Origin: Blasia pusilla
Taxonomy: Eukaryota
Direction of reading: 5' to 3'
Assembly: GCA_050084515.1 (NCBI GenBank)
Contig: CM114271.1
Location: forward strand, 32,488,001-32,552,000
Length of the DNA stretch: 64,000 bases
How positions within the stretch are numbered: the first letter of the stretch is position 1; every line of letters starts with the position of its first letter. Positions 1 to 62,165 of the stretch are shown here, in pieces. The translations under genes were made by a program, and so were the position numbers. Below the pieces are notes generated by a model. The model was not told the origin of the DNA. It did not search any database and was given only the letters and a program-made list of their open reading frames with translations.

Positions 1-1
1 G

Positions 2-2073
2 ATGGTGTTTGAGCGGTTGAAAGCTCATGGTCTACGTTTCCATCCCGGAAAGTGTAAGTTCTTCCATGAGGATGTTGAGTACTTGGGTCATGTGATCTAT
101 CCAGGTGGTTTGGGAGTTCAGCAAGCAAAGGTGGAGGCTATTGCACTTATTCCGCGTCCGATAGATGTGAGTAGAGTTCGAGCATTCATGGGATTGGCGA
201 ACTACTATTGGAGGTATGTGAAGGGATTTAGTGCTATGGCAAAGTCTTTGAACCAATTGCTGAAATCAGATCAAGAGTGGCACTGGGGAGATGATCAGGA
301 GAGAGCTTTTGTGGAGCTTAAGGCCTAGTTGGTGGCGGCGCCTATCTTGAGGAGACCTATCGAGGGCGCCTATTTGAGTTACGATGATTGGAGTAGGTTG
401 GGACTTGGAGCGGTGTTGACACAACATGATGATGAGCACATGGAGTTTGTGGTGGCCTATGCAAGTCGTTCGAATAATACAGCGGAGTCGCGCTATAGTT
501 CATATGAGGGAGAGTGCTTGGCAGTAGTGTGGGTTGTGGCACACTTTAGGTGTTACTTGTTTGGCACACTGATTTACCCTTACCCTTGTTTGATCACCGG
601 CCGCTCAAGTGGTTGATGGAGTCGGACAAGCTTACAGGGAAGCTTGCACGGTGGGCTCTTATCTTACAGGAGTATGACTTCCAAGTGGTACATAGACCTG
701 GAGTTGCCAACCTTGATGGTGATGGCTTGAGTAGGAACCCATGTACTAGCCAAGAGGATACAACTGGGGCTAGATGGCATGGCGAGGTTGATGAGGAGAT
801 GGTGCCAGGTTAGCATGCATCCGCCTTTTTATGTTGGTTAGGGGTGGACTCTAGTATGGAGGATCACATGATATCTTACTCTAGTCAGAGGGTAGATGGC
901 CAGCCTTCAGATCCTAAGGTTGGAGATGGTGGTACGGATCAGCGTGATATTCATGATGATGCGTTGGTGTTGGAGTTCCTACGGACCAAAGAGGGTGCCA
1001 GGCATAGTGAGTGCCAAGGAGCGAGACCGTGTTCTTCAACGTGCTAAGAGGTATCGATTGGAGGGAACACATATTTCTCGCGTGTGGGAGGATGGTAGAG
1101 TACGAGTAGTGCCACATTTGGCTCAGAGAGAGCGCATTGTGCGACATGCCCATGAGGAGTTGGGACATTTTGGGGTAAAGCGTACGTATAGCTTACTCCT
1201 TGGCCAATATTGGTGGCGTGGCATGCATACTCAGGTGCAGCAGTTGGTGTCACGTTGTATGGTTTGTGACCGGGTGAGGGCATCATTCAATGCCCCTACA
1301 CCACAATTACACCCCTTGCCTATTATGGGGTTGGTTTACCATTGGAGTGTGGACTTTTGCGGGACCGTTACCGTTGGTCGCATGCGACATCATCGATATG
1401 TGTTGGTGATGGTGGAGCACTTCTCCAAGTGGATTGAGTTGGTGGCATTACCGGACAAGGCAAGTGAGGGAACGGCATATGCGTTTCTGGATAGAGTGCT
1501 TAGTCATTTTGGTGCACCAGCTGAAGTGCTGACCGACCCGGGGTATAGAGTTTGTGGTGAGTTTGGTCTTGTGTGACAAGGCGTTGATTGATCATCGGAC
1601 CACGTCTCGAGAGCATCCGAGGCGGATGGTTTGGCTGAGCGTGTGGTTCAGACGGTGAAGAGGGCATTGCACAAGTATGGCCTACAGAAGGGGCATCTTG
1701 GAGACTGGGATATTCAGTTGCCATGGTTAGCCATGGGGTATAGGTTCAGTCGCCAAGCATCCTTGGCTTCCTTCTCACCTTATTTTCTGTTATACGGCCG
1801 AGATCCAGACTTGCCAAAGAAAGCAATTGTCGGGAGTCTAGTGAGGTGGTGAACCTTAATGACCCAAAGATGTGGATGAGGGTGTGTTCTCAGCGGGCGG
1901 AGCTCTTTCGGAGAGTTATGCCAACAACCTTTGAGAATCTTGCCATTGCTCAACACAGGGATACGTTGCGGTATGCAACCATTCGGGGTGGAGGTTATCG
2001 ACCATCGATTCGTAGGTTCCATGTGGGGGACTATGTCTATTTGCAGCAGATTGCCCGACAACGTTGGATGTGA
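2..2073 (+). pseudogene. Gypsy pol remnant: RT C-terminus, RNase H, integrase
   Basis: ORF fragments 2-328, 329-616, 550-813, 896-1576, 1631-1852 and 1846-2073 read as successive parts of one pol polyprotein. Confidence 0.93.
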
Positions 2074-2249
2074 CGGCAGGCCGCACTATTTTACGAAAGT
2101 GCGTGAGGTGTTAGCTTCGGAGTTCTCATGTTGGAGGGTCGTGATGGAGTTGTTTGGAAGGACCATGTGCGTAATTGTGCGCCATGTCATCTTCCAAATG
2201 TGGATATCTTGTTGACCCAAGCTTAGCCATGATACGTGCTAGCTTGAGG

Positions 2250-2390
2250 TGCATGTTGTGTGGGTCTGCTGGTAACGCAGCCCGTATGTTGGTGTGTGAT
2301 CGGTGTTCTAGGGGTTGGCACATGATGTGTTTGACTCCACGTTTGGATGTTGTTCCTCTTTGGAAGGTGGGTTTGTCTCGATGTACTTAG
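2250..2390 (+). pseudogene. PHD zinc finger at the C-terminus of the Gypsy integrase
   Basis: CMLCGS...MLVCDRCSRGWHMMCLTPRLDVVP, then a small frameshift (ggaaggtgggtttgtctcgatgt, approximately GRWVC.RC), gives the C4HC3 PHD pattern. Confidence 0.88.
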
Positions 2391-2552
2391 GAGAGGTAGA
2401 TGACTTGATCTTTGCATGATATGGATTACTGGATGTGCGACTAACGATGGGGCAACCTAGCACCCGGCCTTCGATTCGGCACCCAAGAAGGTGTATAGCA
2501 TGTAGTAGATGTATAGGGCTACCTGGGAGTTAGAGGACCTAACCGCTTGATT

Positions 2553-3016
2553 AGGGGGCGAGTTGTGGTACACTTGCGTTTGTGGATACTCGTCTATGTT
2601 ATGTATGTATGGGCGTATGGTATGTCGGCGATGTATGTTGTATGACGATGTGGATTCGCACGACGAATTTGTCATGACCATACGGATTATGTCGAGAGTA
2701 TGGTGTCTTTGGTAGAGGCCATTCCTTATGTAGGACCGTAGTGGCTTGGTAGAGATGCGGTTCCATACATAGGGTTGGGGGTTACTCACTTGGGGGTGAC
2801 TTTCCCAGTAGGGCGCGCTCTTAGGTTGGAGGATATAAGGTGACTTGCCCTCAAAGAACAGTCAGTTCTTTGAGTTGAGCCTGTTGCGTTGGGAGTTAGC
2901 CTTGGTAGTGAGTAGAGCTCTTGGCTATGGTGTTTCCCGCAAGCTTCGACCTAGATTCTCCCATCGTGGAGTGGGTTTGGCTCGATTGTATGTGATTGTA
3001 AAAGTGTTTTATGACA
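2553..3016 (+). repeat. Polypurine tract plus putative 3' LTR (TG at 2564; probable CA end at 3016)
   Basis: agggggcgagt directly precedes tgtggta at 2564. There is a TATA-like gatataag at about 2832. The end ttatgaca (3016) resembles the end of the LTR at 26816-27549. The 3' boundary is tentative. Confidence 0.65.
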
Positions 3017-3039
3017 GTAGGTCTTTCACGCATTTCAGT

Positions 3040-3143
3040 TGTGGTACACTTGCGTTTGTGGATACTCTCGTCTATGTTATGTATGTATGGGCGTATGGTA
3101 TGTCAGCCATGTATGTTGTATGACGATGTGGATTCGCACGACA
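3040..3143 (+). repeat. Direct duplicate of the first ~100 bp of the LTR (2564-2664)
   Basis: tgtggtacacttgcgtttgtggatact...gatgtggattcgcacgac occurs at both 2564 and 3040 with only a few differences. Confidence 0.9.
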
Positions 3144-6100
3144 GGCGTCGAGTGCATAGCATAACCCCACAAGAGCTTGTGCATTTATGGATAGTTTACT
3201 AGTGGAATATATTAAATACTTATGTGCAGTCATGCTAGGGATTGATCGTGTTGCACATAATTTTTTTTATTGTTGCTTGTAGAATGGAAAAAAAATTGCT
3301 CTTACCGTTAGAGTAAGAAATTTTTTTTTTTATGGTTCTCGCATGTCAAACATTGAGGTGTTTGCAAATCAAAGGCACTCTCCATAGATTAGAGCCACCT
3401 TAAATAACAAAAGAGAAAATAATCCACTTTTTTTTTATAAGAAGTCATATGTTGATTTGCCTATAACCTTTTTCTTGACACCATGGTATTGGGGTATAAT
3501 ATAGTGTATCCACGATGCCTCCAATACAAAGCAATTTTTTTATAATCTGATTATTACTTTGGAGTTCACACAATAGTGTTTTGAGGAGACACCCATGTAT
3601 TGCTTGTGCGACCTTCAATGCCAAGAACTTGAGATCATTATAAATATTTTCAAGTCATGAATTTTGTAAATTCCTAAAATTTTGTTTTCGACCCCAATAA
3701 AAATTTGATGGAAAAAGAAAACTTTAGAAAGGTTTAAAATTTGCATAAAGACATTTTCCTTACAGGCATCATATGGATCTGTGGATCCCCCATCTCTTCT
3801 ATTACATTGAATTTAGCGAGGAAAAAATCGAGAATGCATATGAACTTGCATGTGGCATGGTCAGAAGCTTGCCATAGGTAATATACCATGCAATGGTCAA
3901 CATGAAGAAAACTTAGATATTTTTTAATGCAATTTCAAGAGAAAAAATGCCCATGCTCACGCGACAACCTTTTTTTCAATGGATTCATCAATAATTTCTT
4001 CTACCAAAACTTAGATCTTGCCTCAATGATAGATATATGACGTTGTTCATTTTTTCATTAAGGGAAATTCGCCATTGAAACTAGTGGGGACATAGGAAAG
4101 ATTTTGATATTTTTCGTTTCTAGTGCTCCTATCGTCTATTCAAAGTTTGGTTTGTTTTTCTTGTTGTTGCACTCTCATACTGTAGATAAGGGATCTTCCT
4201 TGCCTTCCACTCCGCCCAAGAAAATTTGACTTTTGGGCTATGCTCAAGTCATGGGAGATCCCATTAATAGAGTGTCCCTTTTATGGTTGTGATGTTCTCA
4301 TAATATTACTCATATTATTTTCATTCTTAGTGAAGTATGGTTTTTAGGGTGATTTTTCTCCTTTTCTTCTACCGTTGAGCCAAATATGGATTTGGAATTC
4401 ATTAAAATTTTAATTTTTCTTACCTTTGACCTTTGATGAATTTTCCCATAATTTGTTAAACCACATCTTCTTCTTCTCTCTCTCTTGATTTTTTCATTAA
4501 ATAATAAATTTTGAAGAAATTAGCATCTGCTTCCTCTATTTCATGGGTTAGATAATATTGGTTACTCACATGTTGGGAGAAATTTCCTTTAAAATAAAAA
4601 ATCGAGATGGCACGTAATGCATAATTTTTTTAAATTAATTTTTGTCGGAAGAAATTGGACAATCACTCTTATTAATCACACAAGATGTACGTAATTCACT
4701 TCCCATGCAGAAGCTACATCCATGATTACGAGGCGGGGACGACCATTGATGGCAAGCAAGCTCGCCTTTCAAGGGCCTTCATGTTGCCACTCTTGTAATT
4801 GCAAATACATCCCCCCTCTCCCAAAAGACGTGTAGGGATACAATATACAAATTGGTTTGGTGGCTATTTAAGTGAAGTCATGTTAAGGTTCTTGGGTTAT
4901 TCTGCGCACGCGGTTTTAGGCTTCAAAGTGGTTCTTGGAGAGCTCGGGTTGTACAATATGTGCAAATTTCAATAAACCAACCTGAGAGGATTTGACCATA
5001 AACGACAATCAAACTCGTCTTTCAAAGGTTTTCATGTGATCACTCTTATAATTGATAGAATTACATACATACATACACACATAGGAGCACTTTTGAGGCA
5101 CTTTTTATTCATGGTCGTGTCCACTTGCAAAACGACTATGTAAGAATGTAGGCTTCTTGAATTTGTTTGGGGCATGGTAAGTTGACCCATTAGAGAGGGC
5201 GATTGAGTCAAATTTGGCTTGAAACACCCGTCGCATAATCATGAGTCACGAACCCACGCGGCGAGAAAACGAACTACACTGGCTCAAACTTCAACCTCAA
5301 GGTCTTCCCGTAAAACGTACAGGGATGCCAGCGCGGCGCTGACGGCGCCGTGCGTTGTTGTGCGTTGGGGTGCGAAGCGGAAGAACCCGGTGAGTGTGCT
5401 GGAGCGCTGTCCAGGGGGGAGGACTCGGAGGACCCCGCGGTCCTAGTTCCAGTCAGCAGATAAGGCCTTTAAGAGCGCCAATGAACGGGGTCCCCAACTC
5501 CAGGGGAGGAGATGAGGACCCACCCAGTGGCATTGACTCATCGTAAATTAAATGCCTGACTTTTGCACACGGAAGACAGGAAATGTGGACGCAGGAGGGC
5601 TCTGTTTTATTTAATCTATTAATCCCTGAGCTCAATGCCCTCACTCACGGATTAGTGAGAAACCCTAAACTCAATGCCCTTCCCCGCGCTATCGTAGTTG
5701 TTTCCGGCGGGTAGGTCGTAATAATCATCTAGACGATTATGTGAGTATTGAATCTATATTATAATGGACGACAAAACAGCAGAAAATTTAGCATTTTTTT
5801 AATTCACATTTGAAGCACAAATGAATTTGTATGAAAGAAAAAATTGTTTTTATTGAAATTAATTAAAAATATTTATATTATTATTGGAGAGTGTTTTTTT
5901 ATTTTGCAAAAAAATTTATCTTGATATTTTCAATTATTGAGATCATTTTTTTTATGAAGGGATATGTTAGTTTAGGGTGCCACACATCTAGAGGTTCCAA
6001 CATCTTTTAAATTACTAAGAAACGTTGAACTTTATTCTTCAATTTTATTAGAGAGTTTTTTTTATCAACGTTGTTGGGAAGTTATGATGTTGCCAAAAAA

Positions 6101-6335
6101 TTTGTGGATGCTTGAGGAGTCCAAATTTAAGGTAAACAAATGTGCATGCGCATATAGAATACATTCTAATCTTGACAAGTATGAACGTCTTATTTTGAAA
6201 GAGATTTTCCTTTTCAAAAATAGTGGCGCCCATAGAGTAAAACTCAAGAGTAGAGTAAAACATTGGAGGTGTTGTAATTTTCCCTACATATAAGAATATG
6301 TTGGGCAACAACCTTGCTAGGAAGGTGATTTATTA

Positions 6336-6606
6336 TCTATACTATTAAAAGAAGATGGGGTTTGAAGGAATTCCTCCTTAGTGTCGACACATATGTTTTT
6401 TGCACTCCTCCCTTATTAACATGTGTATTGTTAAACAAAAGAGTTAACAAGAGGAACTAGGAGCTAACAAGTGATAAATTTAACGGACGTGGTCCCCTGT
6501 ACTGTGATTTTTCACCCGTGCTATGCAAAAGAGTTAACAAGAGGAACTAACAAATGATAGATTTAACGGACGTGGTCCCTCCCTACTGTGATTAGTAAGA
6601 TGCTAG
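6336..6606 (+). mobile_element. Probable non-autonomous Helitron fragment with an internal ~70-90 bp duplication
   Basis: Helitron-type 5' end A|TCTATACTATTAAAA at 6336. Duplicated caaaagagttaacaagaggaacta...tttaacggacgtggtccc...tactgtgatt at ~6437 and ~6526. Half-hairpin cccgtgctatgca at ~6515 and CTAG|T at 6603-6607. Confidence 0.45.
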
Positions 6607-8552
6607 TGGAGAAAATAAGAGAGGAATGGAATTATATCAATAAAATCAAGTAGATATGCAACTAGAGGACAATCGTCAAAGGTCATGGCAAATAGATCAT
6701 CTCTTGGAAAGACTTTCAAGAGTATGGACTTCCTTGATTTGCAGGCACGGGTATTTGAAAAAGATTCAAAATACGAATAGGCAGTTTTGAATTCCACCAC
6801 CGGTGAGGACTAGTGAGAAAACTTTAAGAGGGGTGTACACATATGGCCTCTCCCTCTTAATTGAGTGGACGATATCTTTTGAGTTTTTTGCCTTTGGTAG
6901 GATGATTTACTAGCGAACGTGAGCCAAATCTTGCAAAGAAATGCTAAATTCATTTTGATCATACTTGTTCCTATCCACTTTGTTGGCTGGCCACTAAAAT
7001 ACACAGACCGATTGCCATTAGATTTGAAAAAGATGGAAAGTTCGAGATTGTGTGCAATCCTATTTGTCATGCGAAAAGTCTCAAGGGGGGTTAGCTTTCA
7101 CATAAGTTTTATACACGCAATCCTCATCTTCTTTCCAAAGCCCTCCCAACCAAGAGAACTAACCCCAAACTAAAACCCCCCAAAAGACTAGGATTGTTCG
7201 GTGGCCTCGCTACGCATACAGTGCTTAAGATGAGCTAAAGGAAGCACTCACAAGAAAAGGGATCCCAGAATTGGACGAAAACCGCTTCACTAGGCATTAC
7301 AAAATGGGAAGCACATGGGTGGAGCCACGAACATGGTAAGAGTTTGCCTCCTCTCCAAGTTATGTAAAGCCAGCAGCAGAGCTAAAGTTCTTCTGCCATC
7401 AATTTTGGGATTAAAACCAAAAGTTTCGTCTCGCCTTTTCGTGAAACCATCGTGGGAAGATGAAGTCGAAGAAGTGCTAGCTGAGTAGGAGCGGATTGGA
7501 TAAAACGAGAGCCAGCAGAGTGTTTAGATCGGATTTTTCTGGCAGTGTGCGTCAAGGCCAATGCGCTACTCGCAAAGCCCTAAAAGTATTGTACTGTGAC
7601 CTGATCCCGTGGTATGCCAACGGACAACGCCAGAGATGAAAGAGTCCCACCTTTTTCGCCTTGTAAAGAAGAAAAGACAAAGAACATCCGCCCTCGCCAA
7701 GCGCACCACGGCACGCCAAGATGCTTGGCTACATCCGATCGCATGTGGCTCCATCCTTTCAGCAAAAGCGTGCCCGCGGGTGGTCAGGTCTATCACTGCC
7801 GTCTTCAAACAGGAGAGAGATGCTACTGTTTGTTGCCAAAGTAATGGACAGATGATAGCACGGAATCTCAACATCTGTTCTAGGCTTATCCAGTGCACAG
7901 CGCCTCCAACAGGTGAGGTCCACAGCGTTCTTCACAGAAGGGCGCCGCGGTTGCGGTGTGTCGCGGATTCGAGGCACGGAACTACCGGAACACATGATAG
8001 CGCAGAATCTCCCGATCTGTCATAAACTTATCAATTGCAGTGCGAGCGTTCCATCCAACAGTCAGTGCAACATCCCCCGGTGAATCGGAAGGTCGGAACA
8101 GGGGGCGATGGTCCGTTTAGGCGACCAAATCAAGGCAAGCGCACAGTATCCTGTCGCTCGATAATCGCCCCGCCGAATCAATGATTTTCCGCACCACAGA
8201 ATTTCAGCCGATTTCGTGTGCACGCTCTAATCGGCCATTGTCTTCCCCCTCTGCATCGACAGCATCTCCAATGAGACATACATAAATTATGCTATTTATT
8301 GCGCAAATTGGAACCATCGGGGGACTCATCCTTCCGCCACATCTTCACGCAAATCCGACACGAAAGTGTCATGAACATAATTAGGGTTCTCGCATGATGC
8401 CACACTCCCCATATTCACATTCCTTCCTTGCATCCATCCTTCCACGTACAGCTAAAGGCTGAACGTGTCACATCCAATTTGTGTCAAATCAACCCTGAGC
8501 TATAAGAATGCAGCTACAAAGGGGTAGATTGTCATCTCTGGAGCCACTCTCC

Positions 8553-9071
8553 TGTTGAAAAGGTGTGGGTTGGCCCGGACCCAAGAAGGTCCTCCCATCT
8601 CCAGTTCAAGTACATGACTAATGACCGAACGAAACTCAGGCCGGAACTCGGGCAATTGAATCATTCAAGCGTAGAAGATTGTTTCCTCCTGCACGGGCGA
8701 AAAGTGAGATAACAAAGCGTTATTCATGCTAGAGTTGTACGTTAGTATGAAGTAAGTAAGTGAGTGAGTTAGGTTATTTCTAAATGAGATTCCAACCTTA
8801 CTTTTCGAGATGAGGGTTCTTTACCTTATGGAGTGGGGACGTGTCCCTATTTGTCCTTTGATATTGCACTCTCGTCAAAGACGGCGTGTTTTCTTTATTG
8901 TAAGAGTAGGCCTAACTCAGTGGGTTTCGAAACACACTTTAACCACAGGTGACTCAGCGTTTACGTAACTTGAAGTTACGGAACTAAGTACGTTCTGCTA
9001 ACATAACCCAAGCGTCCTTACGGTAGTTGTTCATAGGATCACCCTGGCGTGACACTTGCCGGTAGATAACA
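8553..9071. mobile_element. Possible solo LTR or short inverted-repeat-bounded element
   Basis: Begins TGTTGAAA, like the LTR starts at 18800 (minus strand) and 53333, and ends AACA. No direct 5-bp TSD: the flanks tctcc and ggaga are reverse complements. Confidence 0.3.
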
Positions 9072-10607
9072 GGAGAACACTAGCCTAGTCAAAGACACGG
9101 CCATGCATGCATGCGATCAAGGATGGGATACTTGTGGAGGCTTAGGTGGACTACTCACTTCTTCCTTTGGGGGAGAAAGACGGGGAAGGTTTTGTGGAAT
9201 ATGACTATTTTTTTATTAGATAATTTTATAAAATTAGTCTTGCCGAAAAGAAGACTATGGATCTTTCTTATGGTAACCATTTCTTCTCCATGAGGTACCT
9301 CGTTTTTCTTAATTTTGGTTAGCTGAACCTCTATGTTCTTTCTATCGGAATCTCCTTTCTTTACTTTCCACGCATTTCCCACTTTTAGAATACAATTTAT
9401 TATAAAAATCAACCTCGAAAGAGGACAATGAAAGGAAACACCTTAAGATGGGACGGTGGTGAGAAATGTAAAAAATGAAAGCAAAAAGAAAATGAGCAAA
9501 ACTTAACGCACAAAGTTAGAACATGTTGATCAACACGCTGATCGATTGGTAACTTTTAAAACATTTGACATTAGTACTAGTGGAGGATCAAACGTGAATG
9601 GATGACGAGTTTAGTGGCCACTAGTCTTTTCAGCTCGATTTATTAATGCCAATATTGATGCACATTGTAATGCCACCAATATACATTGTCGAAGTTAAGG
9701 GACAACAGAGAGAGGACTACTAAAAGGGGCAAGTTGATGATTCTTAGGGGAATGGTGAGCACACGTTTTCAAGAAAGTATCAAATGACACATGTAAGTGC
9801 CCAACAACTTCCAATGTAAAACGAATAAATCTATCATTTTCATCTCTTTTGTATAGCTTAATTCCTAGATTATTGCTACTAAATTGATTGCACAATCTTT
9901 AGTATGTGGGGTCCAACACACAAAGTTAGAACATGTTGGATCAGAATAGTGGGAGATACCAAGTATTGACATCTATGAGATCACCCACTAATCTTTCGTA
10001 TGGAAAAATTAATGCTCGTTGGGCAATTGGACGAAGAGCTATAGGAATATGTGTGTAAAGTCCAAGATAAGGGAGACCCGTATAGAAACAACAAAGGAGA
10101 TCAATTTGGTTCAACCATGTCCAAGAAATTGTTGTAGAACAGTAGTTGAAGGAGGTGGTATCATGTTAGGGATTGAAAACACATGGATGGATTGATAGTA
10201 CCGCTGATGTCTTTTGATACTTGTAGGAGTATACTTTTTGCCGTAAGGTATGCAATGAACCTTAGCCACAAATGTAGAAGAAGAAGGATTACAAGGGGTG
10301 GAGGTGGAAGGTGATGATGAACAATGATGTGAGGAAAAGTAAGTTATGGAAGAAGAAGGAGAAAGAGAAGGAATTAAGAAACGATGGGAGTTGGAAGCAA
10401 GGGTTCAAATGAGATATATGAGGATGACAAAGTATTAGGATTTGGTAGTAATGGATCGAGATTATGATGAATGGGAAGAGAAAGCCAAGCGGAGAGGGAG
10501 TAAGAAGAGACTACAGGAGAAATGTAGATAGTGTAATGGATATATGTGTCGTGTGCATTCTCTCTTTGTAAATCAAATGATACTCTCACAATGTCTCCAT
10601 CATGCAC

Positions 10608-10735
<128 letters not shown>

Positions 10736-13700
10736 GCCAAACCAAACCCATTATCCTAATGAGAGGCTTGGGTTACACACACAAGGCAAGGAGGACCATA
10801 GCTCCGCCGTCTCATGCCAAGAAATTCAACAAAGAGAGAATGGGCTCTCAAGCTCACTCTCCTTGAGGTATATCCCCTTCCCTCTCTCAAACTCTCTCCA
10901 CCGTAACATGTGCTCGCAAGTCATCTCCTTTGCTCTTGACCTTTTGTAGGAGGTCAAGGGTCACTTCCCAAAATAGAAATATGACAAAACGGTAACTTAC
11001 CCAAAATAGTACATTTTTCCATATGGCTCCAAATGAGCCAAAACGAAGGGAAAAGTTGCTCTCTTAGGTTACTCATGGCCTCAGTATGTCATCCTCGATC
11101 TCTTGAGGCTGTCCTCCACTATCCTCGAAGGTGCTCTACTAGATCTCGCCGATCTATCCTAAAATACATGACATATGAGAGAAGCGGAAAAATCTACAAT
11201 GAATAGGGGAATCAAGATGAGACGTTACAATTGGAGGAGAGGGTATAAAACCACAAAAGCGAGGAGATGGATTTTCAAAATTCATGTCAAAACTAGTGGA
11301 TATACATAGAATAAATTGTAATAAAGTGAAAGTAGTAGGATAACAGCCATAATAAAGAAGAAGGATCCATCCAGAAAACATTTAGCCGGAGAGAGTGAAG
11401 GTTAGATAAAGGAAATTTTATGATTAAAAATCACTTTAATGAGGATGAAAATATTTGAAATTGAGAAAAAAAATTCAAAAGAGATAGGTTTAGAATAGGA
11501 ATCTGAATGACCCTAAGTAGATAGCAAATTTAGGTGAGGGCAAAGTAGTGAGGTTAAGTGTTGAAAGAGTAAGAAAGATGTGTGAGAGGAATTAACCTAA
11601 AAAGACTCATACAAAAAAATTGGTATGAATGAATAAGAAAGAAAAACCGAGAACCCCACTTAGTATAGAAAGAAAAAACTTGCCAAAACAATTGTAACGA
11701 TATCAAACAGACCCAAAATTGATACTTTAGAGGAAAGTAAGGAAGGAAATGGGAAGCACTCAAAAATAAGATATGAGAAGAAAGTGAAAGCCACCCATCC
11801 ATGATTGATATGGAGGCATGAGGTCGTAATGTGTATCCAACATATAGCAAAAGATTGAGAAAAGCAAGAGAAACCTTGATTATCTAGATTGTAATGAGCA
11901 ATTGTACTCTAAAAAGAGCACAACATATAAATTAGCATATAGGGATCTCTGAGCATATTTGTGAGAGGAGGATGTCCAAAGATTGCAAGAGCTTCGGCCA
12001 AGCCCAAGGTAAGTGGGAAAAAGAAAGACCCACAATTCAAGCTCAAGAAGATGAACAAAGTGCAAGATTGAAAAGATTGGAACAACTACTAACAACAATC
12101 CTCCATATTCTCTACTTCTCCTTCTCCTCCTCTCCCTCCTCCTCAAATCTATAAAATCCCCAAATCCTTCAATTGTTACGAGCAATAGGTGGGAATCCAT
12201 CTTCTATTCAAATAATATATTGACTAGCCCTAGTATGGCTACGCCAAATCCATCTTGGGATTACAGGGTATATCATGTCAAGATGATCTCCTTGGATATG
12301 TCATTTTTTTTACAAAGAGTGAATATATTCATATTCCATCAATGTCCTCTTAATTTTATTAGAATTTCTCCCAAAAAAACTATTTTTAATTCTATTTACA
12401 CAACCTTCCATAGGGATCCCAATTACCATTCTCCATTCACAATCTCTTCTAATACTTGTGATGATTCTTCAGCTATGAGAGTTGTCAAAGCTGCATACAT
12501 GACATACAGACGAGTCATGTATGTATGTCGTGGACGACGGTAAAGTGCATGGATGCGGAGAAATGAGTAGCACTACTGTGGGCATACGGGGTAACGGGAA
12601 TGAAGGAGGATTTATGACGGGTAGTAAAAGGAAAGAAACCGCCTATTCAGCCAGCAAGTTCCAAGGGAACCAACCTCGCGGTATTTTTCTCGGAAACCCC
12701 CCGTCGCTCGGGAAAGTAGTCAGGAGGCGGCCCTCCTCCGGTCTCTAGACTCTCTACAGGACAGGTACCGGCTCCCGGTTCTGACCGGCTCTGCGTGATT
12801 TGTTTTACCCATTGACGAAAGAATCTGCCAAACGAGCCGGTGGCTCCCGGGAAAGTTCGAGAAATTCGCCGGGATTGTAAGGCGTGTCAGTCGGTCCGGA
12901 CGGTTTCTTGTGCAGGCCGCTGTCGCGATCCTCCATTCTCTTCTCGTGTGATGGAATGAATTACTGCGGTCTCGCTCGACATGGCAGAGCCGCAGAAGCT
13001 AGAGAATGTCAGTGAGCGCTCTCGGTTACATGTGGTCTTAGACTCTTAGGGCCCGTGCTGCCCGTGCAGAGCCTCTCTGAGAGGCTCTAGAGATCGTTGT
13101 ACGGTTCATTGCGTGGTCTGCGCATCTTATAACTCACCGTAGTGATCCATCCAGCGAGAAGCAGCTCATAAATACGAGCTCGTAGGCGGCTCCATTACAA
13201 GAATGCAACCGGCGGGCAATGTCGCTTCGTGCTCTGCTCTTGCGGAACCGCACCTGACAGAGATGGGGAGTGACTGGAGAGGGAGTGGCGCAGGTTTCCG
13301 TCTCTCTTTTCCCTAGGATTTGTTTGAGAATTCAACAGAATCAGCACTCACTTTTCTTTGTTAAGGTTAAGGGTTGGAGGTTTGAGAACGCATCAGCTTC
13401 ACACGAGAAAGGCGTTTCCTCTTTGCATGTTTTTATTAGTATTTTGCAACGTCGTATGTAATAGTGGATTTGCAGGAGTGGATGGAAGTGGATACTGTTG
13501 GAGCCGAACGATTAACTATCTTTCAAAACGTGCTCATACGGTGGATGATAGTGATTCTTGATGGATGATTTTATAATGATGATATATACATTTTCTTTCT
13601 TTCCCTGAGTAGTCGTTGTTATAACCCTTCTTGAACTCCCCTGTAATTTCTTCGACGATTTCCTCTCTAGCTTACGCTTTAAGATACTTTTCCCCTCAAT

Positions 13701-25744: not shown

Positions 25745-27549
25745 GGCACACTGGCCCGCTCTCGTGGTACTGGTGCTCGCTGTGGCACTTGTGGGGTTAC
25801 CGTCCCTCGTGGACCTGTTGACTCTCGAGAAAATCCAGTGGTCACTACCTGCTCCTCACTCATGTTGAGCTCAATACGCTCAGACAACTCGAAGACCACC
25901 TTCAATGTGGGCTTCGCTGTGTGAATCAACACCGCATCTCTCCTCCGTAGTTCTCGGTCCAGAATCCCATACGAATACTGGACTGGCTGCGCCTCAGTCA
26001 CTCCATAAGTAGCAATGATCAGCCTCCTCATGCGCAGGAATGCCTCTCTTAGACTCTCACCCGATCATCGCTGAAAATTATGTAGACTCTTCAACTTGTC
26101 GGTGCGTATGCCTTGGTAGCTCTTCCCCAACTGTCGAAAGAACTCCACTGTGGGACTGAAGTTGGGTGGCCTTCTACCACTTGAAGTCTCTGCCACATTG
26201 TCTGTCTTAGTGCCTTCTCTCCATCTAGTCTCCGAGCTAATGGTGTGGGTCTCTCTCCTCTCCCACACTCCTCGCTAGCTCACCTACGCTGATGGTAATC
26301 TCGTGACGACACACCCGGCCTCGCGTACACTCAACACTCGGGCTCACCATGAGCCTCCCAACTAACTCACCTAAACAACCAACACTCTCAAGTCATACAC
26401 ATGACCCCCACTCGGCAACCTCCGTATATCCATATACATGCTATACATGCATGGGGACTCCACACGTCACCATCGCTACACCCATCTAGCCATAACAACT
26501 ACCCGATACCCAGCACTCTCAATCACATAAGATAAGCATGGGAAAATGGACTCGAATGGGTAACCTGATCACGCCCTCCAACCTACGGCACCGTCAACAC
26601 TCACTCCTCCATGTGGTATGGGAACCTTCGCAACACGACACTTTCCTCGACACACGTCAAACCTCCCATCAATGGATGCAAACTCCCCGTCGGGGTGGGG
26701 GCTTTTGGCCCGCGCCCTGTCCAGTCCTGCCCTGCCGCGCCAATCCTGCCCCACTTTGCCGCCGGTCCTGCACTCTGACCTAACCCTAGTTTGGCCGCCC
26801 TCAGGGCAGGTATGGTGTCATAACCTAAAACTACTCTTTTCGTGTTCTCAACACTTTCAGCTACTCACTTACAACCGTCGCTGACACTCTCTGCGCTACA
26901 CCTGAGCGCTACACTCTGTTGTTGCCTCCGGATAGTTTGCACCAGCAAACCGACTGGAGGCGCTATCCGGCCTTCCAAATGGAAAAAATGACAAAACACA
27001 ACGCCAACTAGCATCTCCAGGGGCTCCCAACCGAGGCAACTCGCTTGCCTATCTGCAAACAACGAATTCCCTCCAGCCCCCTGACATCTTTATCATGTAA
27101 AAATAAAGAGTAGTAAGAATGGCACACCCGGCCTAAAACTCCACTCCTCAATTTACATCGGCATATGGATCCTTTTCCATCTTGTGCTCTCAGGAAATCC
27201 AGACGCCCTGGTCCTATCTCACACACAACAAGAGAGATGCTCCAACGGCCCAACATGAGAAAGATGGCTTGGGAAAGCCATCTTCCTCCCTTATCTAGGG
27301 TTGGGAAGAAATAGCTATCCTCCTGGTAACTTGCGCGTACATGTTACCAGGGGCGGATGACCTGCTCAATAAGTCACTTGGCTGTGAAAGACCTCAACAG
27401 GAAAGTTATTAGAAACAACGTTTCTAACACAAAAAACCTATCCTCAACATCATAAGACATCTCACGACAAAGTTACACTCAAGACAATCCGCTGGCTCCT
27501 ATGCCCTATCCACGATAGATCTCCGCCTATCAACTACTCAGATGTGACA
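25745..27549 (-). mobile_element. 5'-end fragment (5' LTR + partial gag) of the same Gypsy family as 53552-64000
   Basis: LTR 26816-27549 has 5-bp terminal inverted repeats TGTCA...TGACA, and its reverse complement matches 53552-54041. The gag peptides VAETS.GR.PPNFSP.VEFFRQLGKSYQG.RTDKLKSL and KVVFELSERIELNMSEEQVVTTGFSRESTGPR are nearly identical to 54295-54750. Confidence 0.9.
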
Positions 27550-45818: not shown

Positions 45819-48800
45819 CTAATCCAGGAATCTATCTCGCTCTCTGACCCTCTCCCTGTCTCTGGGCCATTCTCGATCTCTATTACGCTCCCAGTCACGA
45901 TCTCTGTCTCGTTCCCTATCTTTGACCCTACCTTTGTCTCTGTCTCGATCCCTACTTCTTTCTCTCACCCTGTGAGAATCTCGGTCCCCCTCTCTTTCTC
46001 TCTCACTGTCCCTCCATTCTCGATCTCCTCTGTCATCTCTCCCTCGGCCTTTGTCGGAATCATACATACTCCGATCGTCATCTCTACCATGTCTATGTCC
46101 ATTGCGGCCCCCTTCTTCTCGATCACGACTGAAGCCACGATTGCCCTCTTGATCCCAGTCGTTTTCTTTGTTCCCTCTCTCGCGACTTTTTTCTTTACTC
46201 CCAGATCGTTCGACAATGCCAAGCTCCTCTTTGTCCCAGGCTGCTTTCCCTACCCCAGGGATTGTTGGACCAACCGCATCTCCAAGCTTTGCCTTCAAGC
46301 GAAATTTTTTCTTCAAGTTGCCAAACTCGTCATACATCTCTCCATCATCCTAAACCCAAGGACACCCAATCCCAGAGCAATAGTGAATAAGACTCTATGC
46401 AGACAAACAAGCAAGAACTAAAGAGAAGTAATAACTTCCATTTACACAAGCTTTAGGTCGAGATGGAATTTTGGATGCTTGATTGCTTCATCGCACAGAA
46501 AATACAATATTCTCTGACATTGACATTAAAACCACACATACACCAACAGGAATTTACAGAAGTCCATTGAAGCGCAACTTACTTCTTCAAGCTCACGGCG
46601 CCGACGCCTGGTCTCTTCAATTTCAGCTTCATCAAACTCTTTATAACCTCCTGCTCTCCCTTCTCTATTGAGGCAAAAGACAAACATAACTTGAGCTATA
46701 CTATTGCATCCATTCCTTCAGGTACATTGCTCAATGGATTATGGTTGCTGTACATTGAATTTCCACAGGCACGCTGATTTAACAGGATGAAAATCAGAGT
46801 TAAGTACGTATGGAGAGGAAACCAAGGAAGAGGCACAAATCCAAATCCCGAGACCAAAATCCGTAATCACTGTTCTTACCTGACACCACCTTCATTGTGA
46901 CCAGGCTTTGTTGTGTTGCAGATATTGCATTTGGTGCGTTTTGCCCAGTTTATGTTTCCACACCTGAAGAAATAAAAGCACATCTACATTCAAAATCATA
47001 ATCGGACACATTTCAGGGAAGAAACAGAAGCATGCATCACAACATCCGATATTCCGAAAATTCAGATAGGATCACCTCTGCAAATCTAATCCCAGATACA
47101 AACTTACATAGGACAATTCCAGTCATTGGGACCAAACAGGCCAGGTGGTCCACCAGGGCCACGTCCACGTCCAGCATCCGCTCCAGGACCACGGCCTCCT
47201 CGACCTCGCCCACCACCTGCTCCTCCACCTCCCCCACCAGAGCCACCAGCTGGACGAGCTGTACCACACCGGTTGCAGACTCCTCGAAATGCGAAGTTGA
47301 TGTTGGCACAACTGGAATAAAATTAACAAGTAAAACTGTTTGATTCATAAACAAGAACTAGAAAGCACAGCCTAACTATACTAGCCTATTTCTAACTTTC
47401 AAGTTTGAACAATCTGTCCCTTGAAATTCTACATTCCCATAACACCTCCACCGACCTCTAGGTCATCACCCTCGACCTAGACAATCATTATTTCTACAAC
47501 TAGCCTATCCTGATAACACGCCCCCAACAACTTGCGAGAGTCTGGCTGTGTATGGTGGATTGTAGGACACAATGATATCTCCGTATATTGCCCATAATTT
47601 CTACATTCTGTCCATGCCCTCCAACTACGTCTTCCTTGGACGGGATGCTAGGGCCTCAGTCACATTTCTCCATAGTATTACAAAAAAGGAGACATCTATC
47701 TACAGATCCATAGACCCCTCTTCCCTGATGAAAACCGACTTTGGTTAAAACATCACTACGTAAGACTTACAAACCACTGTATATCCACACTAATTTCTGG
47801 ATCCACTCATGTACAGTTTCCAGCTCGTGAAGCCTCTGTCGCACTAAGAGAGGATGAGTGAGGTTTTTCTTTAAAAATTCTCTCTATGGACAAATCCATC
47901 CATTGCAGCCAACGGGAGCAAGGAGCATGATAGAGCCGCTCACCAAAGTCATCACAGACCTTGGATTTGGACACGGCCAATCCCCCTCCTGTTGCCACGC
48001 TTTTGCTCCAGGCTCCCCACGACCTCTTCCCCTTCCCCCACCACCAGGCAACCCTCCAGCAGCTCCACCAGCATCGCCCATCATCGAAGGGTCTGCTCCA
48101 AATTCGTCCATCTGTTCCTGTCCCGTCTCCGCCATTGGGATTGGTACTGGCATTGCCATTGCAACTACGGGAGTCTGCTCAGTCTGCTGCTGTTCTTTGT
48201 TCTTAGACTCTGCAATAGAAACACTGATAGTGGAACCATGAAAGTCGGTGTTATTGAACCACTCAACAGCTGCAGACGCTGCATGTGGATCCTCATAAGT
48301 GACAGTTGCATCCCCCTTTGGTTCATTGGTCACCTTATCCCGGTATATCCAGATCTTATGCCGCCCAGTCCTCTTATCTTTCTGCTTGGAAAACAAAGAC
48401 AAATACGACTGGACTTTAATAACGGCAGGACACGCACCTCAAGCAAGAATAATACAGCCCTAACCAAACCACTTCATTCCAGCATAGAAATGCATCCAAC
48501 AAATGCAACAGCGACGGCGTTGACGCATCGACTGGCACAAAGCAACTCACTGAAAATGAAAGGAAGTGAGAAGGGCAACATTTGCCACTCGAGAAGGAGC
48601 AGACAAGCTAAGTTTCACTGGAGAGAGCTTAGGTTAGAGAATCCGCCTCACCAACTCCTATTAGCAGTGTAACTAGATCTCAACTCACAAGAATACGGTC
48701 ACTAATGATCACCTTGATTAAACCTATGGTCCCAAAGTGCTCGGCTAGTAGCATCTCATCGGTCCCAGCCGGGAGTTGGCACACATAAATGGCACTATTG

Positions 48801-53200: not shown

Positions 53201-54099
53201 GATGATATGTTGGGAAATAGGGAACATGTTAGAATAAGTTTCCCTTTTTTGGGGACCCATTCACAAGTCATATGAGAAGAAACTCACTAATATGGGTAAG
53301 TTTCCAAATTATGTAAGCTTTGACTTTCTATTTGTTGAAAGTGGCTCTTGACCCACTACTATAGGTTTAGGGTCAAGAGATGACCTACGTGTGCAAGTCA
53401 CCAAGGGGAGGACTGGAGATTTAGGGTATACCTTAAGGAGAGCAAGCCTAAGGAGTAAGCTTGGAGAGCTTATTCTCTCCTTCTTAAACCTTTTGAGCCA
53501 GAGGCGGGAGAGTTGTGGTTCATTCCCATCCTCTCACCGTGGGAGTGAGTTTATCACATCTGAGTAGCCGATAGGCCGAGATCTATCATGGATAGGGCGT
53601 AGGAGCCGGCGGACTATCTTGAGTGTAACTTTGTCCCACAGTGTCGGATGAGGTTGAGGATAGGTCCATTGTGTCAGGAACGTCGTTTTTGACAACTTTC
53701 ATGTTGAGGTCTTTCACAACCGGGTGACTTTTGACCAGGTCACCCGCCCTGGTAACCTGTGCGCGCAGGTTACCAAGGGGATAGCTATTTTTAGGGGAAG
53801 AGCCTTTTGGCTCTTCCCAACCCTATATAAGAAAGGAAGATGGCTTTGCTAAGCCATCTTTCTCATGTTGGGCCGTTAGAGCACCTCTCTTGTATGTGTG
53901 TGAGATAGGACTAGGGAGCTAGCGTCCAGATTCCTTGATAGCACAGGGTGGACGAGGCTCGATATGCTGATGTAGATTGAGGATTGGAGTTTTAGGCCGG
54001 GTGTGTTGTTTTTACTACTCTTTATTTTACGTGAGAAAGATACGGATCCCGACATGGTTCAACCCTTTCATGGCATGGAAGGGGTTGTTCCAGCACTTG

Positions 54100-55335
54100 G
54101 AGGGTCCTCGGATGGATGACTACATGGAGTTTCGATCACTATATTCACTAGAGATCGATGCCTGGAGGATGTACTGGGCTCCAGGGTATGTGTCCACTAG
54201 TGGTCGCGAGGCATATGATGGGATCGTGAGAGGAGCGAGACCCACACCATCAACCCGAAGACTAGATGGAGAGGAGGGCAGTGAGATAGGCGTTGTGGCA
54301 GAGACCTCTGGTGGTAGAGGACCACCCAACTTCAGTCCCATAGTGGAGTTCTTCCGACAGTTAGGGAAGAGCTACCAGGGAGTACGCACTGACAAGCTGA
54401 AAAGTCTACAGGATTTTCAGCGACGATCGGGTGAAAGTCTGAGAGAGGCATTCACGTGCATGAGGAGGTTGATCATTGCTACGTATGGATCGATCGAGGC
54501 GCAATGGCCCAAAGATTGGTACGGGTTCGACCGAGAACTACGGAGGAGAGTCTGAGATGCGGTGCTGATTCACATAGCAAAGCCCGCATTGAAGGTGGTC
54601 TTTGAGTTGTCTGAGCGTATTGAGCTCAACATGAGTGAGGAGCAAGTAGTGACCACTGGATTTTCTCGAGAGTCGACGGGTCCACGAGCGACGGTGAGCC
54701 CGCAGGTGCCACAGCGAGCACCACTACCACGAGAGAGGGCCAGTGTGCCGAGAGAGCAGGGCGGGTACTGTGAGCCTATGAGGCAACGACCTGTATCTAC
54801 ATATGTTGCCCAGCATGGACCGATGTTGTCTTGTTGGACATATGGCGGGGCCCATAGGCAGAGAGACTGCACACAGCATGGGAGAGGACCACGAGCATCT
54901 CCGATTGCTCCGGAGCCCAAGAGGATGGCCCCACCACAGTACCAGTGTGACTATTGTCATAGATATGGTCACACTAGGGATATATGTTATGAACTTCATC
55001 GAGAGGCACGTCCAAAGGTAGGCCGAGGGCCTGGGGGTGGTCGTCTTGGAGGAGATCGGGGAGTTCTTCCTGGATGTGGTGGTAGAGGACTACCACCACG
55101 CAGAGGAGATGGAGCAGGAGCACCAAAGCCGGCACTTCTCTCACGCATCGATCAATTGGAGCAGAGGATTGCTGCCATGACGATGATGGAGCTCAGGGAA
55201 GGCGTGGAGCTACGAGCAACTAGTGTGGCTCCACCTTCTACCTCTTACCCTGACCCGGGTGAGGATCTCGCCAATATAGGGTTTATGTGTAGTACAGCTT
55301 TAGGGTTGCTCTCAGCCGAGCATGGGCTGCTCTAA
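54100..55335 (+). pseudogene. gag of the DNMT-carrying Gypsy element
   Basis: LQDFQRRSGESLREAF (gag major-homology-like Q..GES motif) and zinc knuckles CWTYGGAHRQRDC (decayed) and CDYCHRYGHTRDIC. The start coordinate is approximate. Confidence 0.85.
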
Positions 55336-55345
55336 GCCAGCCCAT

Positions 55346-58300
55346 TGCTCACGGACAAAAAAAACCCAGATTGACTCTCATTCTACACATCATTAAAATA
55401 TAATTGAAATTATAGTACATGAATTGAGCCTTACCCGAATCTGACTCGTCGCGGATCGGAATGGGTACTCGTTTTTTATGATCCACGATTGTGCCGTCCT
55501 CCACTTTAGCGACCTCTTGACGACTTTTCGAGGTTGAAGAGCTCGCCCTCGCTCCCTCCTCCAACACCAAGAAGCGCCCCGCCACTCGAGATAGGCGTCG
55601 CAAAGGAGAACAAAAGTGCAATCTAGTCATAAGAGAGCGGCACATTCCACTCGGTACCTCGTCCGACGGATCTCACCCCAAAGTCGCAAACCCGAGGGCA
55701 GATCGGGCGATCAAGAGATCCACCGCAACCTCTTCGACCACTCCATTCACCGCCCCAGCGTGCCCGTTTTGTTGGAGCTTCCGCCCGGCCTTTGTCAATT
55801 TTTGATGGCGGGTGTCGACGCTGAGAATCAAGCTCTTCACTCATCCAAGAAAGGAGTGAATCAAGGAGGACGCTTTTCCGGTCGTTGTTTGTCATGTCTT
55901 CCCAAGGATGATGGGTCAGTATTCTCCTTGGGACAACCCGGCACCTCTCGCTTCCGCTTCTCCCTAGCCTGGGGGACGGCTTGTCGGGGTTTCTATGACC
56001 TCAAATTCTGGTGGCGTTTTTGGGCCGAGACCTGGTCCGACCCTCTCTCCCCTTCGTCGGAAGATTCCGCCCTGGCCTTGAATCTTCACCTCTCTTTGGG
56101 AAGACTCGGCCTCTGAATTTTTCCCTCCCCTTGCCTTGCCTTTGAGACCCGTTGTGGATTTGTCTTTGGCTGTGCGGACCTTGGAAGCCAACTCAGCTGT
56201 CTCGTGGGCCTACTCTTCTACATCTCCTCCGAAGAAGTCTTCAGGATGGACGAAATTGGGGATGTCGTCTTGTCCTGAGGCCACTGCATCATGAAGCACT
56301 CGTAAGTCCTTATCCGTGATGTCTTCAGGCTCGTTGAAGTCGAGCCAAATGAGGCAATTCTCCACCTCCCAATCGGACATGTGCTGCCCCATCTCCACGT
56401 CGTACATGGAGAATGTCTCTGCATCCGGCGGCGAAGCCCACAATTTCAAGGCTATTGGTAATTTTCCCCACGTACCTGCTGTGATACCCACAATTTTGTA
56501 ATCTTGAAGAATATATCTTTTTATTCAACGAAGACTCTTGTATATTATGATTTTGATTATGATTATTTATTATTATGAAGAAGAATAAGTGAATCACCAA
56601 GCTCCTAAGACAAGGCATAGAGATGGAAGATCAAGGATTTGCCTTAGAGGAGAATCAAAAGTTGAATAAGTATAAAGGATCAACACTAAGCTCAAGCTTA
56701 AGCTTAACAAAATCTAACGGCTCAACAAAGCTCTGTTTTAAGAACTTTGCTCTTGCACTTGAAGCACGGCTAAGCACGAAGAAGAATGAAGAACTCCGTC
56801 CTCCGGAAATTTAGCGCAATAAGCTCAAAGATGATTGTGATTCGAACCGACACATAGTTTAAACAATTAGACTAGGAAAGGCGCGACCCTTTGTATCAAA
56901 TTGGTAGTTAGAAAGATTTTTTGTACCATGGATTCACAGGATCGAGGAAAAGCTAAGAGAACCATAGATCTAGGTAGTTCTGAGATATTGAAGAGACACC
57001 AACTTCATCAAGAACGCCGGATCATAGAAACGCTCCTACTCTCGAGAATATTTAAGAAACAGATAGAAGCTATTATAATCATTCGCTCATGAAGTCCTTA
57101 TGTTTGTAGGAATGGTCCGAAAGCAAGAGAGTTGTACCCTCTCGAGCTTGTATATACTTTAAAGTCTTCCAATTCTTGATGGAGTAGTAAAGCATTCATT
57201 CATTCATTCGATGTGCGATGCTTATATCTGAATATTCTTTTGGGTCTGCCGAGTGAAGAGTGAATCAAAGTAACCTTTCTCATCAATGGAATAATCAACA
57301 TAAAGTTGTATGAAATCTGTTTGACAAAGAGTAACCTCGCCTGACGGATTGAGTTCGAAAGTAGGAGAAGCCACTTTATTCTTGTGTCTTTGTGAGGTTC
57401 CGAGATGTCAAGAGAACAAATTGCCTGAGCGCATTTTTAAACTCCACTCGAGAGAATTGAAGAAGAAAACATAGGTACTAAAAAAGGATCGGAAGATGTT
57501 ACTGGAATATTACATTTGAATTACATAATCAATTACACTTTTACAACATAATCATCACTTTATACTCTCTTTTCATCCAACAATGATCCTCTTGGGGATC
57601 GAACTCTACAATTGATTGTAAATAAGAAACACTTAGACATTACATATAGTCGAAGACTTTTTTGCGCCGCCGGGGATCATATCCTTGGTGAGAAGGGAGA
57701 GAAAGACCCATGGGGAAGCAGGGAACGGAGAAAGAAGCTTCGCTCCTAGAAAACCCCACATTCTAGTTCTTACTAAAGACCATCGGCTAGCTCTAGCGAC
57801 CCCCATAAGACAATGTATTCTTGAAGATAACAATACAGTTGCTGCATTGGTGCTAGAGAAGATAGACCAACTAATTAGAATGGTCAAAGAACCAGTCGCC
57901 GAACGGTGCTTCGCCCATGGACGATAGTTGTACTTGGTGAAAACCCGGTACTTTTGTCTATGGGAGGAAAATCTGGCAGAAGCGAGGAGCACCAGGCACC
58001 CTCTCGTAGATGTAAAAGAAAAGTTAACCTCCATCCATCACCCTATCGCCCGTGGGGGTGAACGCAAGTTGCCAAATCCCCAAGAGACTTATGGAAGGCT
58101 CTTAGCCCTCTTCGCGAGAGCAATGAGCCGACGCGCAGAAGCGGCAGGAACAAGAACCGGCTTGAGACCGCTAGTTCGTCTCGAAGTCTTCGCCCTCGTC
58201 CAAGGTGAAGAGCAAGAAGAAAGAAAGGGACGAATTCTCCACTACGCCCCTCGCCAGTTCAGATCGGACGAAGAGTCGCCCTGGGACCCTTTGGGGAGTC

Positions 58301-61763: not shown

Positions 61764-62165
61764 ATGGCTGAGCAGAGACGGATGCGAGTGTCATCCATGT
61801 CGTCACGTCCACGAGTTAGACCATTTCCTATAGGGTCTGTACAGGCATTGGTTGGGGGCAAGACGAGGAGAGATAGGCATCCATGGACTTCTTGGGACTC
61901 GTCCGAGCAGAGAGTGCGAAGGCAACCAGAGTAGCACATGTTCATTTTTTTGGATGTGGAGCATGGTGTAGGAGGTCAGAGTGGAATGGCTGTTGCGGAG
62001 GTGGCTAGGGTTGCTACATAGCAACCAAAGCCAGAGGTTGCGTCCTCTCCGAGTGAGATCACGATGGAGACTTGGGAGCCTGTGATAGTTCTCAAGTTGA
62101 TAGGAGGAGAGCGTCGGCGAGTTCATAGGTTTTTGAGAGGGCATGTCTAGTGCTTTGCCTTCAGT

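Follow-up and report, generated by a model that had tools for sequence, protein, structure and literature searches.

Ty3/gypsy elements with an integrase-end PHD finger and a DNMT3-like methylase in Blasia pusilla: a land-plant branch of an old clade of the green lineage

The elements at both ends of the analysed DNA stretch of Blasia pusilla (64,000 nucleotides, G000:C1:32488001-32552000, hereafter the window) belong to a land-plant branch of an old Ty3/gypsy clade of the green lineage, which carries a PHD finger at the integrase end together with a DNMT3-like methylase. The family makes up roughly a quarter of the sampled DNA and is transcribed. In its workings it resembles a Gypsy element that primes itself and whose integrase is tipped by a reader, and it is neither a DIRS element nor a chromovirus nor an EpiLTR. 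As an overall explanation, a self-primed, permuted Gypsy element with the methylase on Gag and a PHD-tipped integrase is given a somewhat better than even chance. Reader and writer would travel together in such an element, but as separate proteins acting at different steps. More tentatively, and at less than even probability, an old green-plant Gypsy clade, dominant in this genome, may replicate by an undescribed permuted-cDNA route, with a DNMT3-like enzyme made at Gag level, with thousands of copies that could add to host methylation, and with a PHD finger that places them on nucleosomes.

The window elements and the state of their family

The two window elements share 69.6% identity over 1226 bases of pol (38-1245 vs 62802-63999), which bears out the sister relation proposed in an initial annotation made from the window sequence. 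They represent two families, named A (element at the window start) and B (element at the window end), and the domain order of protease, reverse transcriptase (RT), RNase H and DDE integrase identifies both as Ty3/gypsy. Several boundaries of the initial annotation had to be redrawn. Element A ends at 3143 instead of 3016; in place of one LTR, its repeats are split, with B1-A2-B2 at the 3' end; the 5' repeat of element B is 53552-54028, and 55299-59720 is foreign to the family. Split permuted ends, self-priming and a readthrough signal were likewise missing from that account. The features located in the window are the following:

1-2390, plus strand: element A, 3' part of pol, from the RT end through RNase H and integrase (zinc finger, core, C-terminal region) to the PHD; stops and frameshifts interrupt it in the assembly
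2250-2390, plus strand: PHD finger at the integrase C-terminus of element A, six of eight ligands in frame in the window copy
2553-2561, plus strand: polypurine tract of element A, abutting B1
2562-2664, plus strand: repeat B1 of element A
2659-2676, no strand assigned: B1/A2 junction of element A and proposed inner integrase site; the palindrome GACA-GC-TGTC, commonest in the family, is garbled here
2670-3037, plus strand: repeat A2 of element A, U3-R-U5-like, with a TATA-like word at 2832
3038-3143, plus strand: repeat B2, right end of element A, with terminal ACA
3144-3147, plus strand: 4-bp target-site duplication GGCG of element A, also present left of A1 (in L011)
53552-54028, plus strand: repeat A1 of element B (second family); its target duplication AGTT is common to the 3' end of the element (L012:2381)
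54029-54041, plus strand: self-priming primer-binding site of element B, diverged in the window copy
54114-55298, plus strand: gag region (part) of element B
55299-59720, no strand assigned: nested insertion interrupting element B, no match to the family
60191-60487, plus strand: aspartic-protease region of element B (Pfam Asp_protease_2 matches weakly, and on the intact relative L175 only)
61039-61760, plus strand: C5 methyltransferase region of element B, DNMT3-like, with motifs I, IV, VI and X at 61054, 61309, 61447 and 61716, respectively
62019-62027, plus strand: conserved in-frame stop TAG CAA CCA at the methylase/RT boundary of element B, readthrough-type context
62028-64000, plus strand: RT, RNase H and integrase zinc finger of element B

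Both elements continue outside the window. Protease, methylase and RT start of element A lie upstream (L011 7212-9998; 5' end at L011:3436), and element B proceeds through the integrase core (L012 71-316) and a PHD finger (2017-2112) to a single B repeat (2245-2381). The initial annotation had stated that neither copy shows both domains, which is correct inside the window, but both copies hold both domains in the adjoining genome. Its expectation of a methylase upstream of position 1 and a PHD finger downstream of 64000 was borne out on reading that sequence, and the predicted gag-PR-DNMT-RT-RH-INT-PHD architecture was found on one element. A third copy, of family B, is represented by its 5' part (repeat A1 and gag pieces) at 25745-27549 on the minus strand. 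The nested 4.4-kb insertion has a zinc-knuckle-like motif near 59610 but no Pfam match, and its middle does not recur among the fetched loci; a word near 57660 resembles a tRNA-type primer site.

Searches of the 390-Mb assembly (26 contigs) gave 1220-2451 first-look candidates per genome search, which are not copy numbers. As a rough measure of abundance, 27% of the bases in 20 arbitrarily placed 8-kb stretches match one of two reference copies, with matches in 14 of the 20. Co-occurrence of the two extra domains was counted in samples of 18 of 39 non-self PHD matches and 20 of 39 non-self methylase matches: the other domain is present in 16/18 and 16/20 copies, respectively, the six misses being truncated or deleted copies. 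PHD and methylase are not confined to separate copies, the distribution that would have contradicted the initial annotation.

Transcription of the family was seen in three stranded RNA runs of one study, in which 4408-4927 reads match a full copy at a likeness of at least 88%, mostly in the usual-library sense direction, and cover both methylase and PHD finger. In the last bin, which contains B2, depth is down to 4-9 from 93-144; it is a family-level measure, as any copy can be the source of a read and reads from the repeats may be placed on either one. A read joint 9402 -> 11 was considered as circle evidence and rejected, being ordinary B1/A2 sequence placed on A1. Some reads skip large inner parts (L025:7642-8651 and 2143-8723), pointing to transcribed deletion derivatives.

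Among 40 long stretches, no unbroken frame exceeds 464 codons. This broken appearance of the copies is likely due to assembly error at methylated sites, because 135 of 280 indels between family-A copies lie within three bases of CWG (background 11%), and because many indel sites of the assembled copy are contradicted in concert by RNA reads and an independent contig. In family A, it is B1 and the beginning of A2 that collect errors or variants, not B2 or A1 (in the window, 2562-2664 vs 3037-3143). If such variants are misreads at methylated CWG, the inner junction would be more methylated than the outer repeats.

Split repeats and a putative permuted insertion route

The repeats are arranged as A1-ORFs-B1-A2-B2, and two complete identical flanking LTRs are not present. 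Repeat A has a length of about 368 or 480-500 bases and B of 107 or 137 bases; the ends read TGT...ACA, and 11 of the 14 full-length family-A copies are flanked by exact 4-bp duplications. A search for A/B joints (n=60) returned 45 cases of tract-B-A-B, 13 solo A-B units and 2 truncated copies. Family A contributes 29 of the tract-B-A-B cases and a single solo unit, family B the other 16 together with 12 solo units and both truncated copies; in terms of junction matches among L051-L110, solo units account for 12/30 in family B vs 1/30 in family A. Duplications flank 11 of the 13 solo units (5 found by script, 6 read from the ends). In 60 5' ends, neither a conventional B-A...B-A insertion or clean B-A-primer site nor a clean mirror product A-B-A...B was found, one case (L168) being ambiguous. 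A few copies, including element B of the window, end in a single B, and two others (L039:8409-9787 and L092:888-1698) end in B-A-B-A-B with an extra tandem unit.

Signals for reverse transcription are found beside these repeats. A self-priming complement of at least 11 bases connects a word behind A1 with a word mostly about 175 bases before the A end in 26/30 family-A and 24/30 family-B copies, where an 11-base match anywhere in 370 bases has a chance of about 1e-4 by our own arithmetic. The words differ between the families, and a third word occurs in relatives; in family B, a TATA word lies 31 bases upstream. In A2 of element A, the equivalent of the predicted transcript start is at 2863 and is complementary to the primer site behind A1. 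A purine tract directly precedes B1, and the B1/A2 junction is most often the palindrome GACA-GC-TGTC, which is kept in relatives whose repeats otherwise differ. The full A...B-A-B layout was found in 8 of 80 metagenome loci, two of which probably represent a single element, and 13 further loci have a 3' B...B pair; palindrome, tract and the third self-priming word are largely retained there. B1 is the source of B2: in 22 family-B elements, variants are shared by both repeats in 8 elements and one-sided in none, against 2.9 expected. The A2/B2 joint is rather uniform in the genome, more so than imprecise end-joining would lead one to expect. Variants occurring only in B1 or only in A2, near their junction, would not be expected if both were copied from one template, but they fit assembly errors.

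The anatomy suggests an RNA that would start within A1, about 175 bases ahead of the A1 end, and stop in A2, with expression seen at family level. Quite likely, this RNA would prime itself behind A1, with the plus strand starting before B1, to give a cDNA with B-A at both ends. Given the self-priming and purine-tract signals, B-A at both ends is what standard reverse transcription yields, and the A2/B2 joint is then a fusion of those tips. The inserted form may be a circular permutation of the BA...BA cDNA, opened at the conserved inner palindrome, for which we see about even odds. The integrase step of this route, evenly balanced as well, would leave the cDNA tips unused and cut the palindrome in the left B/A repeat into two processed-type CA ends with a 4-bp stagger, the tips being joined before or after, so as to leave A...B-A-B. 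Foamy-virus integrase cuts a palindromic LTR-LTR junction, as described in PMC1180852; there, cleavage of the 2-LTR circle restores an ordinary linear genome, whereas the elements described here would be cut at the inner junction and their genome permuted.

The permutation route has two identical B/A junctions and leaves the exclusive use of the left one unexplained. The one-sided product and the uniform A2/B2 joint would be explained by an end repair resembling that of DIRS/Ngaro elements, in which the RNA reaches B2, the inner B1-A2 serves as a splint that restores the ends by template jumps, and the integrase uses ordinary linear ends; the layout is also that of split-repeat DIRS elements according to PMC5890265. 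Such repair, however, needs no primer site or purine tract. Both signals are nevertheless conserved, the primer site with covariation. In addition, RNA coverage declines ahead of B2, and B2 and the B1 of the same element have variants in common, so that end repair by template jumps is considered unlikely. A tyrosine recombinase, the mark of the DIRS order, was not found: in Pfam, the two frames of the intact relative L175 match rve but no recombinase family. The anatomy offers a concrete way in which an element with a DDE integrase could come to have split repeats, a combination noted in 2018 without explanation in the accessible text of PMC5890265. LTR finders would presumably miss or misbound such elements, because they expect two flanking LTRs.

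Methylase, readthrough stop and PHD finger

The methylase has a match to Pfam DNA_methylase. Among solved structures, DNMT3A is closest to it (E 2e-7), followed by DRM2 and bacterial enzymes, and a DNMT3-like fold is predicted from these sequence matches. Catalytic motifs IV and VI are present in 13/21 and 20/21 copies of family B and in 5/17 and 9/17 copies of family A. Identity to named relatives from Calypogeia and Marchantia reaches 64%. Between families, pN/pS amounts to 0.30 for the methylase, 0.19 for the PHD finger, 0.24 for RT and 0.14 for integrase, where one family-B copy was compared with 17-19 family-A copies in non-independent pairs, under a similarity filter and with synonymous sites near saturation; the row for the integrase C-terminal region (INTc) was left out, its query being out of frame. 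Judged by these ratios, purifying selection acts on both extra domains, as strongly as on RT.

In both families, an in-frame stop between methylase and RT splits gag-PR-DNMT from RT-RH-INT-PHD. Its context was read in the 33 of 40 stretches that carry the anchor word. Family B has TAG CAA CCA in 17/17 anchored copies. In family A (n=16), TAG CAG CCA (4) and TAG CAA CCA (1) together give TAG CAR CCA in 5/16, the other 11/16 being garbled or altered (TAG CGA CCA 4, TAG TAG CCA 1, unreadable 6). Four metagenome relatives show TAG CAA CCY at the equivalent place. In the intact relative L175, a frame of 1369 aa encodes protease and methylase and abuts, across TAG CAG TTA, on a frame of 1047 aa for RT, RNase H, integrase and PHD. 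According to PMC2754532, CAR YYA after UAG is the readthrough signal of TMV. The stop is missing from a more distant subfamily (L194) and from P0059, and the methylase lies in the ORF of RT in L194, P0059 and Closterium. In the branch studied here, the methylase is probably made at Gag level and the finger in the rarer Pol product. Very probably, translation would yield mainly Gag-PR-DNMT, with RT-RH-INT-PHD made by leaky readthrough of TAG CAR YYA and the methylase abundant in the particle. A methylase in the abundant Gag product and a finger in the rarer Pol product argue against coupling of the ADD type and for action on packaged cDNA. Such action has been proposed for enzymes of this kind by de Mendoza et al. 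in their Discussion (PMC5890265). Here, it is slightly favoured that the methylase would act on the element's own cDNA, so that new copies arrive methylated.

For the PHD finger, a C4HC3 motif had been annotated as the end of pol. The Pfam PHD match at the integrase end (window 2229-2390, E 1.7e-8, above the curated cut-off, first Cys at 2250) supports this, but the window copy is incomplete, its last CxxC being out of frame via a frameshift near 2360-2380. Complete C4HC3 fingers occur in seven other copies among the 40 long stretches (L018, L026, L035, L039, L044, L045 and L047), and an unbroken frame leads from the integrase core to the PHD finger in L038, L040 and L048, with Pfam rve and PHD on L038. 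At the integrase C-terminus, Pfam scans found PHD only and no chromodomain, which sets the family apart from chromoviruses; they also found no adenine methylase, which an EpiLTR would carry. The nearest solved structures of the finger are those of CHD4, DPF2/3, KDM5, ATXR5, PHF21A, BAZ2, AIRE and UHRF1. Fingers of these types mostly read the unmodified H3 tail. A Trp two positions before the His, which we take to be the place of the cage Trp, is found in 0/121 relatives, and the own copies have Gly there. A Trp is required in H3K4me3-reading PHD fingers, as stated in PMC3214078, where the fingers of UHRF1, AIRE and BHC80 are described as reading the unmodified H3 tail and the Asp after Cys3 as binding H3 R2. 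The finger accordingly lacks the mark of an H3K4me3 reader. An Asp after Cys3, by position the equivalent of D334 of UHRF1, is present in 111/121 relatives, suggesting a UHRF1-type finger. The Asp directly before Cys1 that BHC80 and AIRE have for H3K4me0 is missing in both own families, and an Asp at -3 occurs in 43/121 relatives. Binding by the land-plant fingers may be weak, because most acidic residues of their Cys2-Cys3 loop are lost. It is reasonably likely that the PHD finger would bind the free unmodified H3 N-terminus and tether the intasome to nucleosomes, its selectivity for K4 being weak or uncertain.

Insertion flanks (102 ends vs 80 random windows) gave no usable sign of targeting. 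CG was found in 5/102 target duplications, with a weak symmetric preference only, which rules out a CG preference like that of Phygy elements. Repeats are not in excess in the flanks (44/102 vs 39/80 in random windows). Flank composition was tried as a heterochromatin proxy and is uninformative: the difference in CpG o/e is small (0.59 vs 0.66), and the contrast is confounded by the element's own sequence, which makes up 29% of the random windows.

Two other readings of the extra domains have to be weighed against a methylase acting on packaged cDNA and a finger acting at integration. In the initial annotation, reading and writing were thought to be coupled, with the PHD finger finding H3K4me0 chromatin and bringing the methylase to the insertion site like the ADD domain of DNMT3A. 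Both domains are indeed conserved on one element, some relatives hold them in one frame, and in the chlorophyte type the methylase directly precedes the integrase (48/163 proteins) and could stay fused to it. In the Blasia genome, however, the conserved stop as well as RT and RNase H separate the methylase from integrase and PHD, the Asp sensing K4me0 is not in place, and the flanks carry no targeting signal, which makes coupling quite improbable here. Still less credible, and largely refuted, is the reading of the extra domains as passengers or of the copies as dead relics, with a methylase that serves or harms only the host. The limit of 464 codons on unbroken frames in the long stretches would fit decay, yet the CWG clustering of indels and the disagreement of reads and contig with the assembled copy point to assembly error, selection on both domains is as strong as on RT, and intact relatives such as L175 exist.

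Relatives and known systems

Among the matches listed (best 120 of 227), integrase-PHD relatives come from Marchantia and from the chlorophytes Pleodorina, Volvox, Tetrabaena, Chromochloris and Haematococcus. Both domains are present in 52/163 database proteins, counted with profiles built from the matches (Pfam's own calls are fewer), and in 23/80 metagenome loci, some of which are duplicates and many short. The methylase precedes RT in a streptophyte group; in the group that includes the named chlorophytes, it follows RNase H and precedes integrase. FastTree trees of methylase and RT, midpoint-rooted without outgroup and with the RT tree comprising this clade only, separate the two groups with support of 1.00 and 0.99; one capture with relocation and two captures would both fit these trees and cannot be told apart on them. 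An example of the second order is L234:1108-11145, with in-frame ORFs of 1163 and 2182 aa and a single TAG without CAR YYA; split repeats were not found in the loci of this chlorophyte-type order, L234 and L245. No Klebsormidium-named record occurs among the matches listed, where the nearest named algal relatives are from Closterium. A metagenome scan with one protein query gave no match, and the viral collection held no relative.

Compared by description only, the family is most likely kin to KnitGypsy-Dnmt3 of Klebsormidium nitens (PMC5890265), which shares the Gypsy domains, a Dnmt3-like domain under purifying selection and A1-ORFs-B-A2-B repeats. That element is a low-copy acquisition in the K. 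nitens lineage with the methylase in the ORF of RT, and the available text and supplement text name no PHD finger; the Blasia elements differ, by description rather than sequence, in their occurrence in land plants, very high copy number, readthrough stop, self-priming and defined inner palindrome. Gypsy-7a_cRei and REM1 of Chlamydomonas (PMC9940879) are Gypsy elements with a PHD finger likewise proposed to guide insertion, but the accessible text names no methylase and describes near-ordinary LTRs for Gypsy-7a. The combination of chromatin reader and cytosine methylase on one LTR element is already in print for EpiLTRs (bioRxiv 10.64898/2026.05.21.726589), which, as described there, carry a chromodomain, an adenine methylase and a DNMT4-sister enzyme instead of PHD and a DNMT3-like enzyme. 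The chromoviruses Tf1/Sushi and Tcn1 share self-primed reverse transcription and a reader at the integrase C-terminus; according to PMC6317226, this reader is a chromodomain, the LTRs are ordinary and there is no methylase.

In a search of mainly open-access literature, no paper was found on PHD and DNMT3 on one Gypsy element, on a bryophyte expansion, on the readthrough stop or on the permutation, and the family is not reported in the accessible text of PMC12344493, PMC8557442, PMC6673714, PMC11982613, PMC6453930 and PMC13519894. Methylase-bearing retrotransposons have been described from algae and dinoflagellates, and a review gives them as absent from land plants such as tracheophytes (PMC6338049, as far as its accessible text goes). 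Here, a high-copy, transcribed bryophyte family is added, and named records in Marchantia, Calypogeia and Sphagnum put methylase-bearing elements in bryophytes; Marchantia makes the function of such a methylase testable in a model plant.

Other parts of the window hold unrelated features. The minus strand at 30409-31463 matches zf-C17orf113 (E 7e-10) and, weakly, DUF4371, which we take to suggest a hAT-like DNA transposon remnant. An RRM_1 match (E 1e-4) at 47887-48438, also on the minus strand, is possibly a host-gene exon, and 9000-12000 contains another repeat family with matches in up to 21 fetched loci.
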